Virus record (IMG/VR): IMGVR_UViG_2541047804_000005
Direction: 5' to 3' (one strand)
From: a virus
Lineage: Duplodnaviria; Heunggongvirae; Uroviricota; Caudoviricetes
Length of the DNA stretch: 36,214 bases
A program made the translations under genes and the position numbers. Below are positions 649 through 32,010 of the stretch, in pieces. The notes under the pieces were generated by a model that saw nothing but the letters and a program-made list of their open reading frames with translations, searched no databases and was not told the DNA's origin. The first letter of the stretch is position 1; each line of letters opens with the position of its first letter.

Positions 649-1298
649 TTGTCGGTGTACCTCTCTCGTTTACTCAGTTGTTCAGGAATATGGTGCAGCA
701 GCTCGCCGTCGCCACAGTAAATGGCGGCATGATTCGGCACCGATGAACCAAAACAGCACAGCAGCACATCGCCCGGCTGGGCCGCTGACAACGGCACCTG
801 ATACAACCCCGTTGCCTCCATATTATCCAGATAGAGATTCTGGCCGTGACGCCACCAGTCATCCCCGCGATGAAAATCCGGCATCTCAATTCCCGCCAGA
901 TGGTAAGCGTCCCGGAACAGCGTGTAACAGTCCGTCACCCCGTGCTCAAAGCGCCGCCCGGTGAGATGCGGCACACAGCGGAATTTATGAATCGCCCCCC
1001 GGCAGACCAGCCACCACGGCAAATCACTCTGCACCTGCAGCCGCCGGTCGGCCTCACTCAGCCAGGGCAGACCACCGGGGTGGCTGTGGACCAGCGCCAC
1101 AATCTCTCCCTGCATTTCTGCACTCAGCCAGTCCTCCGGCGACATCCGGAAATACGCCTCCGGCTCACCAGAGATATTCACGCAGGGAAAATATCTTTCC
1201 CCCTCCGGTGTTCTCACCACGAAGCCGCACGACTCCGCTGGCGCACATCGCCGGGCGTGCGCCAGAATCGCTGATTCTGTCTCTGTCATGGGATTCAC
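546..1298 (-). CDS. Tail assembly protein, lambda gpK-like (MPN/JAMM plus NlpC/P60-type)
   Basis: 250-aa ORF with HSHP-type JAMM motif and a downstream Cys-containing hydrolase region, sitting between L and I as in lambda. Overlaps I by about 100 nt; true start may be the internal Met at 1289. Confidence 0.75.
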   Translation of the reverse strand: MNPMTETESAILAHARRCAPAESCGFVVRTPEGERYFPCVNISGEPEAYFRMSPEDWLSAEMQGEIVALVHSHPGGLPWLSEADRRLQVQSDLPWWLVCRGAIHKFRCVPHLTGRRFEHGVTDCYTLFRDAYHLAGIEMPDFHRGDDWWRHGQNLYLDNMEATGLYQVPLSAAQPGDVLLCCFGSSVPNHAAIYCGDGELLHHIPEQLSKRERYTDKWQRRTHSLWRHRAWHASAFTGICNDLVAVSTFV

Positions 1299-17067: not shown

Positions 17068-17338
17068 GATGTTACCGTAGTATGTGAGTATCCATCGAAT
17101 AGATACCAAGCAAAAAAGCTCCCGAAGGAGCCTTCATTTTCACTTTTTTAAATCCAACGACAGACGGCTGGCATTTAAGTATTGTGAAATATTATCAAAT
17201 GTAATCATCATTGATTTACAAAAGATACATTTTGCCCCGAAAGGATTCATGTCAGAAACATCAAAAGATGATGTTCTATACTGGGAACCATGACAACACG
17301 GGCATCTAAAGTGAATATGGTTTGTAATATTGTCTACC

Positions 17339-17551
17339 TCAAAGCGCCACTACATGAACAGCGGCAGGACCTTTAGGTCCGTTCTCAATACCAAATTCAA
17401 CTTCCTGATTCTCAGTTAATGTTTTGAAATCGTTGCTCTGAATTGCTGAGAAATGGACAAACACATCTTTGCTGCCATCTTTCGGCGTGATGAAACCAAA
17501 ACCTTTTTCAGGGTTAAACCATTTCACTAAACCAGTCATTTTGTTAGACAT
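17339..17551 (-). CDS. cspI: Cold shock protein, CspA family (CspI-like)
   Basis: 70-aa ORF with the cold-shock domain signature KWFN.EKGFGFI and VFVHFSAI (RNP1/RNP2 motifs); a long AT-rich upstream leader region follows on the minus strand. Confidence 0.8.
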
Positions 17552-17914
17552 AATTATTACCTTTTGAAGAAATTAGCCCTTGGGCAGAATGGTCCGAAAA
17601 AAAATATCAGAGAGAAAAACCAACAAGGAAATCTCAAGAGGTACAAATAATAAAATTATAACAATGACTGCTTCAGATAAATTTGTAACAAACCAGAACA
17701 CCATTAACGCATGATTAACCACCCATAGCAAGGATTACTTTTGTAAAGAAAAACACAGCAATGAAAGAATAGCTTTATTTATTAATAATAACGTGTCATT
17801 CTGATTAAGACCTTTTATCTTACCCTTAAGATTTCAGGAATTTTGGCTCATGGAAGAGTCCTTTTTATTTAAATTTTACATTCCGCGATGTAAATGTTCC
17901 GATTTAATATTACC

Positions 17915-19939: not shown

Positions 19940-20223
19940 TTTGAGATTGTGGTGCTTTTTGTGGGAGTCATCCACTTACGCACTTTGTTTTGCCATGCCA
20001 GCAGTTAGCTTCTGCTGTAAAACTATTCATGCAGCAAACCTGCACTTCACCACAATGGTTAGCATACTTTTCCTGATTAAGATTTTGCCAAATATGCTAG
20101 CCATTGTTTCATGTATTGGACCTCCTTACTTTTTATTAAAGAGATCCAATATTCACTACTCTGTCCGTATCTCTACTCAGGCATCAGCCTTCTTCGTTAT
20201 CGTATACAGACGAGCGATGAATT

Positions 20224-20439
20224 TTAATCAGTAATGATGACATTTGCTGCTGCAGGACCTTTAGCACCACTCTCTATAGAGAAGGTAACCTTTTGACCTT
20301 CAAATAAGGTTCGATAATTATCATTCTGAATCGCAGAAAAATGCACAAACACATCTTTACTACCATCAACAGGAGAAATAAAGCCGAAACCTTTATCAGC
20401 GTTAAACCATTTTACTAAACCAGTCATTTTATTTGACAT
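20224..20439 (-). CDS. cspB: Cold shock protein, CspA family (CspB-like)
   Basis: 71-aa [26 protein letters not shown]...VFVHFSAI with both RNP motifs; divergent from the cspF-like gene as in Qin. Confidence 0.75.
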
Positions 20440-20739
20440 TCTACATTCCTTAACTTGAGCCTTTCGGCATAAATGGTTTGCATAACAGAAACGACTTCGT
20501 ACTTAATTGGAGAGACTCAAAGAAGGAATAAGTGAATAACACCTGAAATGAGAACTGCTTTAGTAAACTACTTCGTATATCGTCTGTTCTTCAAACCGAC
20601 GCAATCATTAACGCATAGTTGAACATATGAAGCAATGTTTATTTTAGACATCCAGCCATCTTCAACCCCATCAAAAAACTATAGCTTTCTTCAGGAACGT
20701 GTGTATAGTGCGCCAAGTTATCAGTATTAAGGAATTTTT

Positions 20740-21373: not shown

Positions 21374-22126
21374 TTATCTCGTCACCTTCCTCAATTGCGC
21401 TTCCGCGTATGCTTCTTCCTGCCAGCACTTTGTTACCAGTTTATCAATGACGTCCGCATACCCCTTATACCACTGATAATCGGTCAGGTCTGGTACCAGC
21501 TTCTGGACATGACGTCGTGCCAGCGTGGTCGGTAAACGACTAAATCGGTTTCCATTACAACGCCCACAAATCTTATATACCGGTACGCCATGAAACCGGG
21601 TTCTTTTTTCATCCAGAACAATCCCTTTACCCTTACACCCTCTGCACGCTGTGCTGACTTCGCCCTTACCATGGCAATGCTGACATAGTTCCTTCACCCA
21701 TTCTTCCTTGATTACAGATTCCCCGCGTCTGTAGTGTTTCACCACTTCGCGCAATACATTATAAAATCCCGTACCTGAACAATGCTCACAGCGAGCCTTA
21801 CTTGCCGCAGACCTGGAGTAATCAGCAAAGGCAAAATTCACAAGGTAAGGAATAATCTGTAACCGGATTTCTTCACTCAATTTGTTCAATGTCGGGTTAT
21901 CCAGTGCCATCGCGTAATTTAGCAGGCCTTCAATCGCAAACTGAGGGTCCTGAACACCAACTTTTGCCAGAAATAAGGCCAACCCAAGTGGTGCTTTCGA
22001 CTGCACCATCCCCTGCGCTGCCATTACATCCGTAATTGTTAAACAACCGGTGCCTGTCGCTGGAGCGTCATCGCTCAATTTTGGAGATTTTGGGGAGTAA
22101 TATTTTGGTAAGGCTTCAAGGTTCAT
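21374..22126 (-). CDS. Late antiterminator Q (phage 82 / QuuQ type)
   Basis: 250-aa ORF with several CxxC pairs (CEHCSGTG, CQHCHGKG, CRGCKGKG, CGRCNG) characteristic of 82-type Q proteins; located upstream of the lysis region. Confidence 0.8.
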   Translation of the reverse strand: MNLEALPKYYSPKSPKLSDDAPATGTGCLTITDVMAAQGMVQSKAPLGLALFLAKVGVQDPQFAIEGLLNYAMALDNPTLNKLSEEIRLQIIPYLVNFAFADYSRSAASKARCEHCSGTGFYNVLREVVKHYRRGESVIKEEWVKELCQHCHGKGEVSTACRGCKGKGIVLDEKRTRFHGVPVYKICGRCNGNRFSRLPTTLARRHVQKLVPDLTDYQWYKGYADVIDKLVTKCWQEEAYAEAQLRKVTR

Positions 22127-22630
22127 GCTCGTTCTCCACTTACGCCAGTACGCCAGTTGCCAGCGCGCGATCGATAAAACGAAATATCAGCTCCAGTTGG
22201 GAGCCATACTTCTCTTCAAATGCCACTGTATCCGTATGCAGCTCGTTGTGATGCTTTCTGCACAAAGGCAACACAAAGAGATCATGTGCTTTTGTTCCCA
22301 TTCCGCCCTGCCCGTGACCAATCAGATGATGCGGATCGTCGGCTGGCATACCGCAGCAAGCACACGGCTGTGTCTTAACCCAACGAGTGTATTTCTCCTT
22401 AACCCAGCGGCGACGTTTAGGCAGCTTCATGAAAGATTCCGGAGACTCTGGATCAACGGTGATGCTTACCACCGTCTTTTCCTGTGGTGGTTTTTGTTGC
22501 TGGTGGGCGTAAGGCAACGGTGCAAGATTTTCTGTGCGTTGTTTCAATATGCTGGTGGCGGTCTGCTCTCCCTGTACGATGTCGCTTTCGCGGTACACCG
22601 AGCAGATTTTTTCCGCTGGTAATCCCAGCG

Positions 22631-22639
22631 AACGACGCG
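22631..22639. repeat. IS1 target site duplication, left copy (AACGACGCG)
   Basis: Identical 9-mer directly abuts both IS1 termini. Confidence 0.85.
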
Positions 22640-22654
22640 GGTAATGACTCCAAC

Positions 22655-23158
22655 TTATTGATAGTGTTTTATGTTCAGATAATGCCCGATGACTTTGTCA
22701 TGCAGCTCCACCGATTTTGAGAACGACAGCGACTTCCGTCCCAGCCGTGCCAGGTGCTGCCTCAGATTCAGGTTATGCCGCTCAATTCGCTGCGTATATC
22801 GCTTGCTGATTACGTGCAGCTTTCCCTTCAGGCGGGATTCATACAGCGGCCAGCCATCCGTCATCCATATCACCACGTCAAAGGGTGACAGCAGGCTCAT
22901 AAGACGCCCCAGCGTCGCCATAGTGCGTTCACCGAATACGTGCGCAACAACCGTCTTCCGGAGCCTGTCATACGCGTAAAACAGCCAGCGCTGGCGCGAT
23001 TTAGCCCCGACGTATCCCCACTGTTCGTCCATTTCCGCGCAGACGATGACGTCACTGCCCGGCTGTATGCGCGAGGTTACCGACTGCGGCCTGAGTTTTT
23101 TAAATGGCGGAAAATCGTGTTGAGGCCAACGCCCATAATGCGGGCGGTTGCCCGGCAT
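22655..23158 (-). CDS. insB: IS1 transposase InsB frame (expressed as InsAB' by -1 frameshift)
   Basis: 167-aa ORF inside IS1 with the IS1 InsB sequence as remembered. Confidence 0.85.
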
Positions 23159-23352
23159 CCAACGCCATTCATGGCCATATCAATGATTTTCTGGTGCGTA
23201 CCGGGTTGAGAAGCGGTGTAAGTGAACTGCAGTTGCCATGTTTTACGGCAGTGAGAGCAGAGATAGCGCTGATGTCCGGCGGTGCTTTTGCCGTTACGCA
23301 CCACCCCGTCAGTAGCTGAACAGGAGGGACAGCTGATAGAAACAGAAGCCAC
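23077..23352 (-). CDS. insA: IS1 InsA (transposition repressor)
   Basis: 91-aa [46 protein letters not shown]..., the canonical InsA length and zinc-finger sequence. Confidence 0.9.
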
Positions 23353-23407
23353 TGGAGCACCTCAAAAACACCATCATACACTAAATCAGTAAGTTGGCAG
23401 CATCACC

Positions 23408-23416
23408 AACGACGCG
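23408..23416. repeat. IS1 target site duplication, right copy (AACGACGCG)
   Basis: Same 9-mer as at 22631-22639. Confidence 0.85.
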
Positions 23417-23967
23417 ATACAGCCTCAGGTAGTGCATCCACCACCTGATTGCAGACCGCCCACCAGGATAATTCAGCCAAAGATAATTCCCGCTCCTGCG
23501 TACCGCTTATTGCGTGACGGATGACGTCAATCACCCATGCTGTCAGATTTTGTTGAGCAAGCAGCTCCAGTGATTCCGATGTCTGGTCACGCAGTTGGTT
23601 GTCGCAGTGCCAGCACAACACCATTGCGCCGGTACCATAACGGTGAATGACTGTTTCAGTGTGATGGTAATCGCCATTAGGCCACTGGCAGGATGTAACA
23701 TGACGTAATAGCCAGTCAGACAATGCGCCAACGCCGCCAGTAGCACGAATCACCCGTTCGTTACTAAAAAACGGCAGCAATGTTTTGTCTTCTGCCAGCG
23801 GCTGGCGAACGGCAGGAACGACTCCGGATGGCAGATTTCGCATGCTTTTTGGTTCCGGTTCCACCAGCACTCGAGGATTATGAAATATCTGTATGGATTC
23901 ACGGCCCGGCTTAAGGACCACCAGCCCAAGCTCAGGCACCAGAACAGGTCTAAGTAATACCCGCACG

Positions 23968-24246
23968 TTACCTCCAGATCCGTTGCTGGAAAGTGCGGGA
24001 CGCACGTGGTGGGCGTTCGGAATAAGGCAGCCTGACAGAGATTATCCAGTGCCGATAGTCGAGACTGAGAGCTTTCTTAACCTCGAACCCGCGCCTGCGG
24101 TAAGAATGAATCAGCCATTCGGCCTGTTCTGCAGTGCATGGAGGGTGCTGGAACCATTCAGACTTGAATGCGTGAGAATACCGCCCGTGCGTGCAGGCAA
24201 GAACGGGCGAATTATCAGAATTGTAATATTTTACGTTGCGTGCCAT
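23968..24246 (-). CDS. Hypothetical prophage protein (92 aa)
   Basis: ORF upstream of the DUF968 gene, overlapping its start; no family recognised. Confidence 0.35.
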   Translation of the reverse strand: MARNVKYYNSDNSPVLACTHGRYSHAFKSEWFQHPPCTAEQAEWLIHSYRRRGFEVKKALSLDYRHWIISVRLPYSERPPRASRTFQQRIWR

Positions 24247-24780: not shown

Positions 24781-24936
24781 TTACTCCTCAGGTTCGTAAG
24801 CTGTGAAGACAGCGACCTCCGTCTGGCCGGTTCGGATTCGTACCTCGCAGAGGTCTTTCCTCGTTACCAGTGCCGTCACTATGACGGTTAAACAGATGAC
24901 GATCAGGGCGATTAACATCGCCTTTTGCTGCTTCAT
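24781..24936 (-). CDS. hokD: Hok-family type I toxin (HokD/RelF-like)
   Basis: 51-aa ORF MKQQKAMLIALIVICLTVIVTALVTRKDLCEVRIRTGQTEVAVFTAYEPEE: single transmembrane helix plus the conserved Hok C-terminal Cys region. Confidence 0.85.
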   Translation of the reverse strand: MKQQKAMLIALIVICLTVIVTALVTRKDLCEVRIRTGQTEVAVFTAYEPEE

Positions 24937-24993
24937 AGCCTGCTTCTCCTTGCCTTTCGGCTCGTAAGAGGCTAACCTACATGTGTCTAGCAT
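24781..24993 (-). CDS. Mok-like reading frame (in-frame N-terminal extension of hok)
   Basis: ATG at 24991-24993 opens a 70-aa frame (MLDTCRLASYEPKGKEKQA-MKQQK...) that runs into hok, resembling MokC-type arrangement. Confidence 0.5.
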   Translation of the reverse strand: MLDTCRLASYEPKGKEKQAMKQQKAMLIALIVICLTVIVTALVTRKDLCEVRIRTGQTEVAVFTAYEPEE

Positions 24994-25050
24994 GAAATTG
25001 GCCTCAGATTAATGTTAAGCGTCTTGCAGGACGCGTAATGTTAACTGGGG
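24985..25050 (+). ncRNA. Predicted Sok-like antisense RNA
   Basis: Plus-strand TTGCCT-N17-TAACCT (24950-24978) would start an antisense transcript across the mok start codon and ribosome binding site; a short hairpin GCGTC-TTGCAG-GACGC lies at 25010-25025. No clear U-tract terminator; ends are approximate. Confidence 0.3.
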
Positions 25051-25111
25051 CTTTTCTCTATCTGCCTTTGGTGTTCATGCCCGAGGCAGATAGCCTCAAG
25101 CACCCGCAGCC

Positions 25112-25610: not shown

Positions 25611-27398
25611 ATGGACGATATTAATATCAGCCTCGACGAACTTAACACTATTGATTTATCCCCCTTAATCCAGAGTAAGCTGCCAGTTACCTGCTTTGAT
25701 ATCACAAAGTATCTTTCTAGCCTAGGTGATGGAAGAGCGGAGATAAGACTGCTAACCCATATTTGCGGTTTTCACTTTCGTCCCGAAAATCCACAGGTAC
25801 CATTTGGTCCGTGCTTTCAAAGCAGCCAAGGTAGATCTGCAATTCCGGATGACATTAACGGGTTGTCGCTGGAGGTACTTTCTCAATTTTGCCCGACGAT
25901 AGAGCTACCCGAACTTCAAGCTCGTATTGCTGATACACTTTGGGTTCGTAAAATTGGTGGAATCCGTTTTCCTTTGCTGGCAGTCCGTGCTTATTATGCG
26001 TCCAGTATAGCTATTATGACATCGCAAGGGACGTGGGTTAGTGCTTTAGAACGCCTAGAGCGTGCGCTTAGGCTGTGTTGTTTTTTTCGAAAGAATACTG
26101 ATTTCAGGGATGAATTTGATCAGCTTTCGGCACATCTACTAGCAGAGTATGAACGTACCAGAGAACAAGGCGATTCACCTTATCCGCTGCGACTCCTGCA
26201 ACTCGATATCGACTGTAAAGTGAGTGAGCCATCTTTTATTGCCCAGGAACTCCTGTTTCTGACAAAAAACTATCTGGCTCAAAAATTATTTTCATTTGCC
26301 GTCGATGCCTGTAAAACCGCAATCACGATTGCGAATAGGTGCTGTGACAGAGATACACAGTTTGAATTCTGGCGGCTTCTTGCCGATACACATCTGGAAG
26401 AGTCAAAATTCCAAGATGGCGGTATGATTTCGGCAGCCTGCATGCAGAATGCTATTGAAGCACTGGCTAATATTCCAGGAACCCGAATAGAACGTCTTGC
26501 GCTGTATGAAGAAATGCGTGATTACCAAATCGAATCCCGTCACCAGATGTCTATCCTTCAGTCTCCCCCTCAAGATATTAGTGAGATTGTCCATCAAGCC
26601 AAGAGTCGGGTAGTCGGAAGAGATATGTTTGATATGGTTTTCAGACTTGCGATGCTGGTCTGTCGGCCAACCAGCATTGAGAGACTTAAGGCTCAAGCAA
26701 TAGAACAAAAGGCCAACAGCATAGCTTGGATGTTTGGATCAACACATATTGATCATGAGGGAATGACACTTGCTCGCATACCCGCAGGATTGGGGATTGA
26801 TGATGCAAATGGGGCAGTTATTTGGCCCATAATGATGACGAGAATGCGTATCGACCATGAGTTGGCAGTAGCTGGGCAAATTATTCCTGCTACAGATGAG
26901 ATCACAATGAAATATCCAATCTCGGAGGCGTTTTTTCGCGATATGTTCATCAATCATCCCTTCATCCCGTTTGGGCATGAAGAGTTTTTCATCAAGGGTA
27001 TGGTTTGCGGTTTCAATGGAGATTTTATGACGGCATGCCACGTGTTGATTCCCCAGATCGAAAATAGTCTGAGATATGTGGCTAAAATTAAAGGTGAGGA
27101 ACCATCGCAGCTTCACGGGGACGGTTCGCAAGAGCGAAATGGACTCAAGGGATTACTAGATAATCCACTGATTATTGAAGCTTTCGGCGTAGACATAATT
27201 GGCAATCTTCAGGCCTTACTGGTAGATAAAATCTATGGTGATTTACGAAATCAACTAGCTCACGGATATGTGCCTGCCGGTTACTACAATCAACCTCCCT
27301 GCATTTTTGCATGGTGGCTTGTATTGCACATTCTAATGAACCCTACGGCGAGATACTGGCAAGCCACTTATGGCCAAGAGAGTGAGGCTCAGACTTAA
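25611..27398 (+). CDS. Orphan 595-aa protein with C-terminal HEPN-like Rx4HxY motif; candidate abortive-infection or defence RNase
   Basis: Long uninterrupted ORF with AGGTGA ribosome binding site, opposite in orientation to both neighbours, lower GC than the flanking phage genes. C-terminal LRNQLAHGY (R546...H551.Y553) fits the HEPN Rx4-6H / HepT Rx4HxY catalytic signature. No N-terminal domain recognised. Confidence 0.6.
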   Translation: MDDINISLDELNTIDLSPLIQSKLPVTCFDITKYLSSLGDGRAEIRLLTHICGFHFRPENPQVPFGPCFQSSQGRSAIPDDINGLSLEVLSQFCPTIELPELQARIADTLWVRKIGGIRFPLLAVRAYYASSIAIMTSQGTWVSALERLERALRLCCFFRKNTDFRDEFDQLSAHLLAEYERTREQGDSPYPLRLLQLDIDCKVSEPSFIAQELLFLTKNYLAQKLFSFAVDACKTAITIANRCCDRDTQFEFWRLLADTHLEESKFQDGGMISAACMQNAIEALANIPGTRIERLALYEEMRDYQIESRHQMSILQSPPQDISEIVHQAKSRVVGRDMFDMVFRLAMLVCRPTSIERLKAQAIEQKANSIAWMFGSTHIDHEGMTLARIPAGLGIDDANGAVIWPIMMTRMRIDHELAVAGQIIPATDEITMKYPISEAFFRDMFINHPFIPFGHEEFFIKGMVCGFNGDFMTACHVLIPQIENSLRYVAKIKGEEPSQLHGDGSQERNGLKGLLDNPLIIEAFGVDIIGNLQALLVDKIYGDLRNQLAHGYVPAGYYNQPPCIFAWWLVLHILMNPTARYWQATYGQESEAQT

Positions 27399-31406: not shown

Positions 31407-31459
31407 TTTCTGGTGACGTTTGGCGGTATCAGTTTTACTCCGTGACTGCTCTGCCGCCG
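31407..31459 (+). ncRNA. dicF: DicF small RNA
   Basis: TTTCTGGTGACGTTTGGCGGTATCAGTTTTACTCCGTGACTGCTCTGCCGCC followed by GTTTTT matches DicF as remembered, including the GGCGG...CCGCC terminator stem; located just upstream of dicB. Confidence 0.75.
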
Positions 31460-31822: not shown

Positions 31823-32010
31823 ATTCAGCATTTGCGCTTGTTCTGACAGTTTTTCTTGTTTCCGGAGAGCCAGTTGATATTGCAGTCAGTGTTCACAGGA
31901 CAATGCAGGAGTGTATGACTGCAGCAACCGAACAGAAAATTCCCGGTAACTGTTACCCGGTCGATAAAGTTATTCACCAGTATAATATCGAAATCCCGGC
32001 AGGTCTTTAA
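31819..32010 (+). CDS. ydfD: YdfD-like small membrane protein
   Basis: 63-aa ORF from ATG 31819, overlapping the dicB stop (ATGA); N-terminal hydrophobic segment FALVLTVFLV. Confidence 0.55.
   Translation: MNSAFALVLTVFLVSGEPVDIAVSVHRTMQECMTAATEQKIPGNCYPVDKVIHQYNIEIPAGL

Follow-up and report, generated by a model that had tools for sequence, protein, structure and literature searches.

An IS1 element interrupts ydfU, a DUF968 gene next to the Q antiterminator gene of a Qin-type lambdoid prophage

Insertion of IS1 into the promoter-proximal gene of an operon is a classical cause of polar mutations, known for example in gal and lac, in which the gene further down lacks its own promoter and polarity is brought about by Rho-dependent termination. 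IS1 is also known to cause deletions and inversions adjacent to it. The described features of the element include a weak promoter that overlaps the terminal inverted repeat IRL and an A6C motif with a role in frameshifting, and IS1A and IS1E were the sole significantly active copies in an assay performed in Escherichia coli K-12 (PMC12428005). The closest known counterpart of the gene reported here is ydfU of the K-12 cryptic prophage Qin (b1560), which has rem and hokD on its upstream side and the Q antiterminator gene quuQ on its downstream side. In the K-12 lysogen, a strong Rho-dependent terminator upstream of ydfU already silences transcription into this gene (PMC9160355). The encoded protein belongs to the DUF968 family, which has been classed with DUF1364/YbcO in group 7 of the His-Me finger proteins (PMC5714182) and whose members have been described as combining an Orf-like DNA-binding portion with an HNH nuclease portion (PMC4118853). 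No biochemical data on YdfU were found in the literature searched, nor did a literature search find a paper on an IS1 insertion in this gene.

The window analysed here (the whole stretch of 36,214 nt) corresponds to a Qin-type lambdoid prophage at the rspAB locus. Unlike K-12 Qin, it appears complete from the integrase to the tail genes, with an excisionase, an exonuclease, dicB, a dicA/dicC-type repressor pair, Q, and lysis, terminase, portal, capsid and tail genes. Its ydfU gene has the same neighbors as the K-12 gene but is interrupted after codon 186 by a copy of IS1 (Table 1). The two prophages also differ in that K-12 Qin carries relBE-ydfV-flxA where the window prophage has a DUF4209 gene. 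The 595-aa product of the latter (window 25611-27398, plus strand) matches PDC-S39, a candidate defence family of PADLOC (E 8e-103), and the gene may be a defence or accessory ("moron") cassette that was swapped in.

Table 1. Position of the IS1 element, its target duplication and the neighboring genes in the window.
Feature	Coordinates	Strand	Remarks
IS1	22640..23407	-	orientation as for ydfU and quuQ
IRL	23385-23407		terminal inverted repeat of IS1; end reads GGTGATGCTGCCAACTTACTGAT on the complementary strand, inward from 23407
IRR	22640-22662		terminal inverted repeat of IS1; end reads GGTAATGACTCCAACTTATTGAT, from 22640
insA	23077..23352	-	91 aa, GTG start; IS1 repressor, also the N-terminal portion of the transposase
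insB' frame	22655..23158	-	DDE catalytic domain; expressed solely as the InsAB' fusion
Programmed -1 frameshift site TTAAAAAAC (A6C motif)	23095..23103	-	intact
Promoter-like site inside IRL	23373..23400	-	9/12 consensus matches, pattern match alone
Target-site duplication next to IRR, AACGACGCG	22631..22639		
Target-site duplication next to IRL, AACGACGCG	23408..23416		
ydfU 5' fragment	23403..23966	-	186 host codons followed by Trp and TGA from IRL, 187 aa in total
ydfU 3' fragment	22140..22639	-	codons 187-349 and stop; no start codon at its 5' end
quuQ/ydfT, Q antiterminator	21374..22126	-	starts 13 nt past the ydfU stop
92-aa hypothetical gene	23968..24246	-	directly upstream of ydfU, unaffected by the insertion

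The element measures exactly 768 bp, and 18 of the 23 positions of its inverted repeats agree. The product of insA is recognized by the Pfam models Zn_ribbon_InsA (3e-21) and HTH_Tnp_IS1 (1.7e-30) and the insB' frame by DDE_Tnp_IS1 (2.3e-78), all three IS1 models (PF03811, PF12759, and PF03400) being matched far above their cut-offs. A -1 shift at TTAAAAAAC joins insA and insB' into the canonical 232-aa InsAB'. This anatomy agrees with the published feature list of IS1, and the promoter-like site found in the window occupies the position of the weak promoter reported there (PMC12428005). The window copy thus shares with the family its length, inverted repeats, insA, insB', the A6C motif, the 232-aa InsAB' and the 9-bp duplication. 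Many copies on chromosomes and plasmids that carry the annotation "IS1-like element IS1B family" show 100% identity to it from end to end, and it differs from them in location alone. With respect to the K-12 copies, there are 2 nt differences from IS1B/IS1C and 7 from IS1A, all of them outside the inverted repeats; likewise, the K-12 "consensus" IS1A/IS1E and the window copy disagree at 7 positions. Judged by its sequence the element is intact, with every sequence determinant of transposition present.

The 9-mer that abuts both ends of the element, AACGACGCG, reads CGCGTCGTT in the orientation of the gene and spans YdfU from the second base of codon 184 to the first base of codon 187. A search of both strands located it only at these two sites in the 36-kb window, and a 9/9 match between two fixed positions would arise by chance with a probability of 3.8e-6. 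Target duplications of IS1 are recognized as direct repeats of 8 or 9 bp, and the one present here has 9. Deletion of positions 22640-23416 in silico produced one continuous frame on the minus strand (...PEAVSRR|SLGLPAEK...). The first-pass annotation, made from the letters alone, had placed an IS1 at these exact limits between perfect 9-bp repeats, and had stated that the split frame resumes in phase once the element and one repeat are removed. These statements were borne out by the Pfam domains, the identity to annotated IS1 copies and the recovery of a 349-aa DUF968 frame, with the correction that ydfU, insA, and insB' are all encoded on the minus strand.

The reconstructed empty site, a 991-bp sequence with a single 9-mer at its centre, is found at 100% identity in many complete E. 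coli genomes. Matches at 99% identity or higher amounted to 189 records, and among the matches listed the site was annotated as a single ydfU in 30 of 30 records. The genome of 118UI (NZ_CP032515.1) carries an IS1-free version of the window prophage beside rspB/rspA, that is, at the Qin locus, with no pseudogene flags set. It is collinear with the whole window and aligns in two BLAST pieces that overlap by exactly 9 bp, meaning that 118UI has one copy of the target; AACGACGCG is single-copy in the empty allele of K-12 as well. The left 22,639 bp of the window are 99.95% identical to 118UI and the right 12,807 bp differ by one SNP, at 31915, while the flanks of IS1 show 100% identity to the empty allele for 4.5 kb on either side. 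The 118UI sequence can be read as a direct view of the allele before the insertion. The comparison with IS1-free relatives that had been proposed as a check on the split gene thus gave an identical empty site and relatives with a single 349-aa ydfU, not two separate genes. All 11 differences on the left side (nine substitutions and two indels) fall within 190 bp, at window 1107-1296, where the tail C40-peptidase and tail-assembly genes overlap; this patch looks like gene conversion from another lambdoid prophage.

The filled allele is rare. When each junction between IS1 and ydfU was queried at a coverage of at least 80%, none of 5,426 complete E. coli genomes gave a match, a count that is near-complete rather than absolute as 378 IS1-rich records were each covered to 40 pieces. 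The exact junction on the IRR side had no match in one-genome-per-species contigs or in JGI metagenomes. Look-up of the exact 187-aa product returned two contigs from three samples, KE700478.1 (GCA_000458515.1) and CAXJUP010000001.1 (GCA_964046045.1), and both are 100% identical to window 13403-33966 (20.5 kb). Based on the identical repeats, the identical flanks, an IS1 sequence identical to that of other copies and this narrow distribution, the insertion is considered a simple and evolutionarily very recent one, restricted to a small lineage, in agreement with the recent origin proposed at first. Its absence from the 5,426 complete genomes and presence in two other assemblies make it useful as a lineage marker.

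The protein restored by the reconstruction is the 349-aa YdfU, fully collinear with K-12 b1560 and 98% identical to it (7 aa differences). It matches the whole Pfam DUF968 profile (PF06147; positions 1-171 of 171, 256.2 bits, cut-off 27.8, E 2e-76) as well as the whole profile of phrog_96, annotated as "HNH endonuclease" (positions 1-334 of 334, E 6e-170). A database search produced 1,570 homologs, the best 120 of which are mostly 348-352 aa long and named DUF968 domain-containing protein. The His-Me/HNH motif (...QPCACCG...DDPHHLIGHG...LCRKHHNELH...) is invariant in 22 homologs, and the HNHc_6 and RecA_dep_nuc models scored slightly below their cut-offs. YdfU is probably a nuclease. Compared with the sequences in the PDB, the reconstructed protein gave nothing significant (best E 0.48), and an AlphaFold2 model built with 22 close homologs (mean pLDDT 51.5, pTM 0.41) was too poor to confirm the fold or to serve for a fold search; low model confidence at residues 189-208 and 221-268 suggests a flexible linker directly after the insertion point. 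The homologs (entries P0003-P0005 and P0055) include 607-aa YdfU-Q fusions (DUF968 plus Antiterm) and one RusA-DUF968 fusion of 447 aa, which could represent genuine read-through or fusion alleles, or else artefacts of gene calling.

For the start of ydfU, the GTG at 23966 is preferable to the GTG of the longest ORF at 24005, since it is preceded by a GGAGG Shine-Dalgarno sequence, lies 1 nt past the stop of the 92-aa gene and is where RefSeq begins the gene in 118UI and K-12. The N-terminal fragment described in the first-pass annotation does exist, but its length of 199 codons, which follows from the GTG at 24005, has to be reduced to 186 host codons; in addition, exact look-up of the 200-aa longest-ORF version found no record, the public assemblies calling the 187-aa version alone. 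The 92-aa gene itself (WP_001309521.1 in 118UI) matches phrog_1212 at 1.7e-35 and has no Pfam match, and at its position in K-12, 346 bp between ydfU and rem carry no annotation.

As a result of the insertion, YdfU stops after Arg186 with one Trp and a TGA contributed by the end of IS1, and the 5' fragment matches positions 1-186 of 334 of the phrog_96 profile. Conversely, the 163 C-terminal codons of the 3' fragment hold the entire His-Me/HNH core and still match DUF968 (3.5e-58), with HNHc_6 (1.5e-6) slightly below its cut-off. As this core is left wholly in a fragment that lacks a start, the activity of full-length YdfU would be lost, which supports the earlier suggestion that the gene may be inactivated. 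Gene callers report a 110-aa ORF in the 3' fragment, starting at a GTG at 22472 with a plausible ribosome-binding site (AGGA) 9 nt before it and keeping the whole His-Me core; this product could still be made from read-through transcripts, so that residual expression is possible.

The interrupted gene had been described as the neighbor of Q, and this is the case: the product of quuQ matches Pfam Antiterm (PF03589; 183.5 bits, cut-off 26.7, E 7.7e-55), its counterpart in 118UI and K-12 is annotated as ydfT, antitermination protein, and its Shine-Dalgarno sequence falls within the short gap that follows ydfU. In a consensus scan, the sole promoter-like site on the minus strand from IS1 to quuQ was the one that IS1 itself carries in IRL; none was found in the 3' fragment of ydfU, nor was an outward hybrid promoter detected at the junction between IRR and ydfU. 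Given the 13-nt distance between ydfU and quuQ and the lack of promoter-like sites in the 3' fragment, transcripts of the early region would have to traverse the 768 bp of IS1, largely untranslated (translation is normally confined to insA), followed by 500 nt of ydfU that are now untranslated as well. Polarity of IS1 through Rho-dependent termination would lower Q and hence late-gene expression. The arrangement is alike to that of the gal and lac mutations, with IS1 in a promoter-proximal gene and a promoterless gene downstream, although for quuQ the argument comes from the gene layout, which indicates that the insertion probably lowers the transcription that reaches it. A C-rich, G-poor stretch in the untranslated 3' fragment (22564-22481; 36% C, 14% G) has the look of a possible Rho entry site, a hint from composition alone that carries no weight.

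Under normal growth the insertion may change nothing, considering that in K-12 ydfU is already silenced by a Rho-dependent terminator. The polarity of IS1 could be overcome if the phage has an antitermination system. Transcription of the early operon entering the element could, in turn, raise the expression of its transposase during induction, as can be derived from PMC12428005. Should IS1 exert polarity on quuQ, late-gene expression would suffer in a Qin-type prophage that is complete in other respects, illustrating the onset of decay in cryptic prophages such as K-12 Qin, and the insertion may be the first disabling lesion of this prophage.

Altogether, we conclude with high confidence that one intact IS1B-like copy of IS1 transposed into the coding sequence of ydfU, a DUF968/His-Me-finger gene directly upstream of quuQ, in what appears to be a complete lambdoid prophage of the Qin type at the rspAB locus. 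InsAB' cut the target in the usual staggered fashion, and repair of the cut duplicated AACGACGCG; YdfU is truncated, and the loss of activity and the polarity on quuQ deduced above would follow. No observation contradicts the insertion itself, which is confirmed as a textbook IS1 insertion mutation, real and unsurprising. For annotation, it means that ydfU in the window strain should be entered as a pseudogene interrupted by IS1; beyond annotation its significance is small.

Look-up of the 110-aa ORF brought out other, independent lesions in ydfU, which bear on the question of whether the insertion has a function. An independent 1310-bp element of the IS3 family, which we take to be IS629-like, interrupts ydfU in another assembly (GCA_037049725.1, JBAIFI010000007.1; positions 1017-2333 of locus L012). 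Its ends read TGAACCGCCCCGGG..., it is bordered by a 3-bp duplication (GTA) 2 bp from the IS1 target, at about window 22640-22644 in the empty allele, and apart from this the sequence on either side shows 100% identity with the window. Further loci show an IS2-like end that lies deeper in ydfU by about 120 bp (L015), a deletion of about 6 kb that joins the ydaT side to mid-ydfU (L013), an internal ydfU deletion (L017) and, judging from split gene calls, probable frameshift or nonsense alleles (L009 and L016). The breakpoints beside the IS1 target in two more loci (L011 and L014) turned out to be runs of N (scaffold gaps) and were discarded as lesions. By a rough estimate, the odds that two different insertion sequences fall by chance within 2 bp of each other are a few percent; the coincidence could be due to chance or to a local insertion hot spot.

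The independent breakage of ydfU by an IS3-family element, an IS2-like end, probable frameshifts and deletions is what speaks for a functional insertion, either one that was selected because it locks the prophage by cutting off Q, or one that frees a stand-alone YbcO-like His-Me nuclease through read-through from IS1. Small stand-alone His-Me relatives do exist, such as YbcO/DUF1364 (PMC5714182) and phrog_1588 (132 aa), and Qin genes in this region have been described as toxic and Rho-silenced (PMC9160355). Against this, neutral decay of a dispensable prophage gene also yields recurrent lesions, with which the breakage of ydfU fits, the IS1 allele is rare with no sign of a sweep, and the consensus scan gave no outward promoter at the IRR junction, so we regard a functional insertion as unlikely. 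It is similarly doubtful that the stretch upstream of Q is a hot spot, or that its breakage is favored by cutting Q off and locking the prophage; if this were true, the first step of prophage domestication would have been caught in progress.

The preferred account, a simple transposition into ydfU, was also weighed against explanations of the junctions that involve no such event. Since IS1 is multi-copy (a median of 11 places per genome) and such repeats are often misassembled, the element might be a misplaced repeat; yet a misplaced repeat would not yield a perfect 9-bp duplication of a single-copy target, and the identical structure is found under two accessions, GCA_000458515.1 and GCA_964046045.1, which makes an assembly artefact very improbable. 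That the flanking ORFs are two separate genes with IS1 in the spacer between them agrees with the gene callers, which list 187-aa and 110-aa ORFs in the filled allele, no other support having been found; it is contradicted by the annotation of the empty-site alleles of 118UI and K-12 as one 349-aa gene, by the continuity of the frame after excision of IS1 and one repeat, and by matches along the full length to phrog_96 and to more than 1,000 homologs, mostly of 348-352 aa, and we give it next to no credence. Equally negligible is an origin of the junctions in a rearrangement (deletion, inversion or recombination between two IS1 copies), which IS1 is able to promote next to itself, as both flanks are contiguous and collinear with 118UI with nothing missing but the duplicated 9 bp, identical direct repeats on both sides are the signature of simple insertion, and the 36-kb window holds neither a second IS1 nor any other long repeat able to recombine with it.

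The only long direct repeat in the window lies elsewhere and corresponds to the two Rfam cspA-thermoregulator 5' leaders (17312-17697 and 20208-20600, both on the minus strand) upstream of cspI and cspB, which are 73% identical between 17352-17551 and 20240-20439. Two small RNAs scored above the Rfam gathering threshold, the sok antitoxin RNA beside hokD (24931-25105, minus strand) and the DicF sRNA (31408-31459, plus strand).
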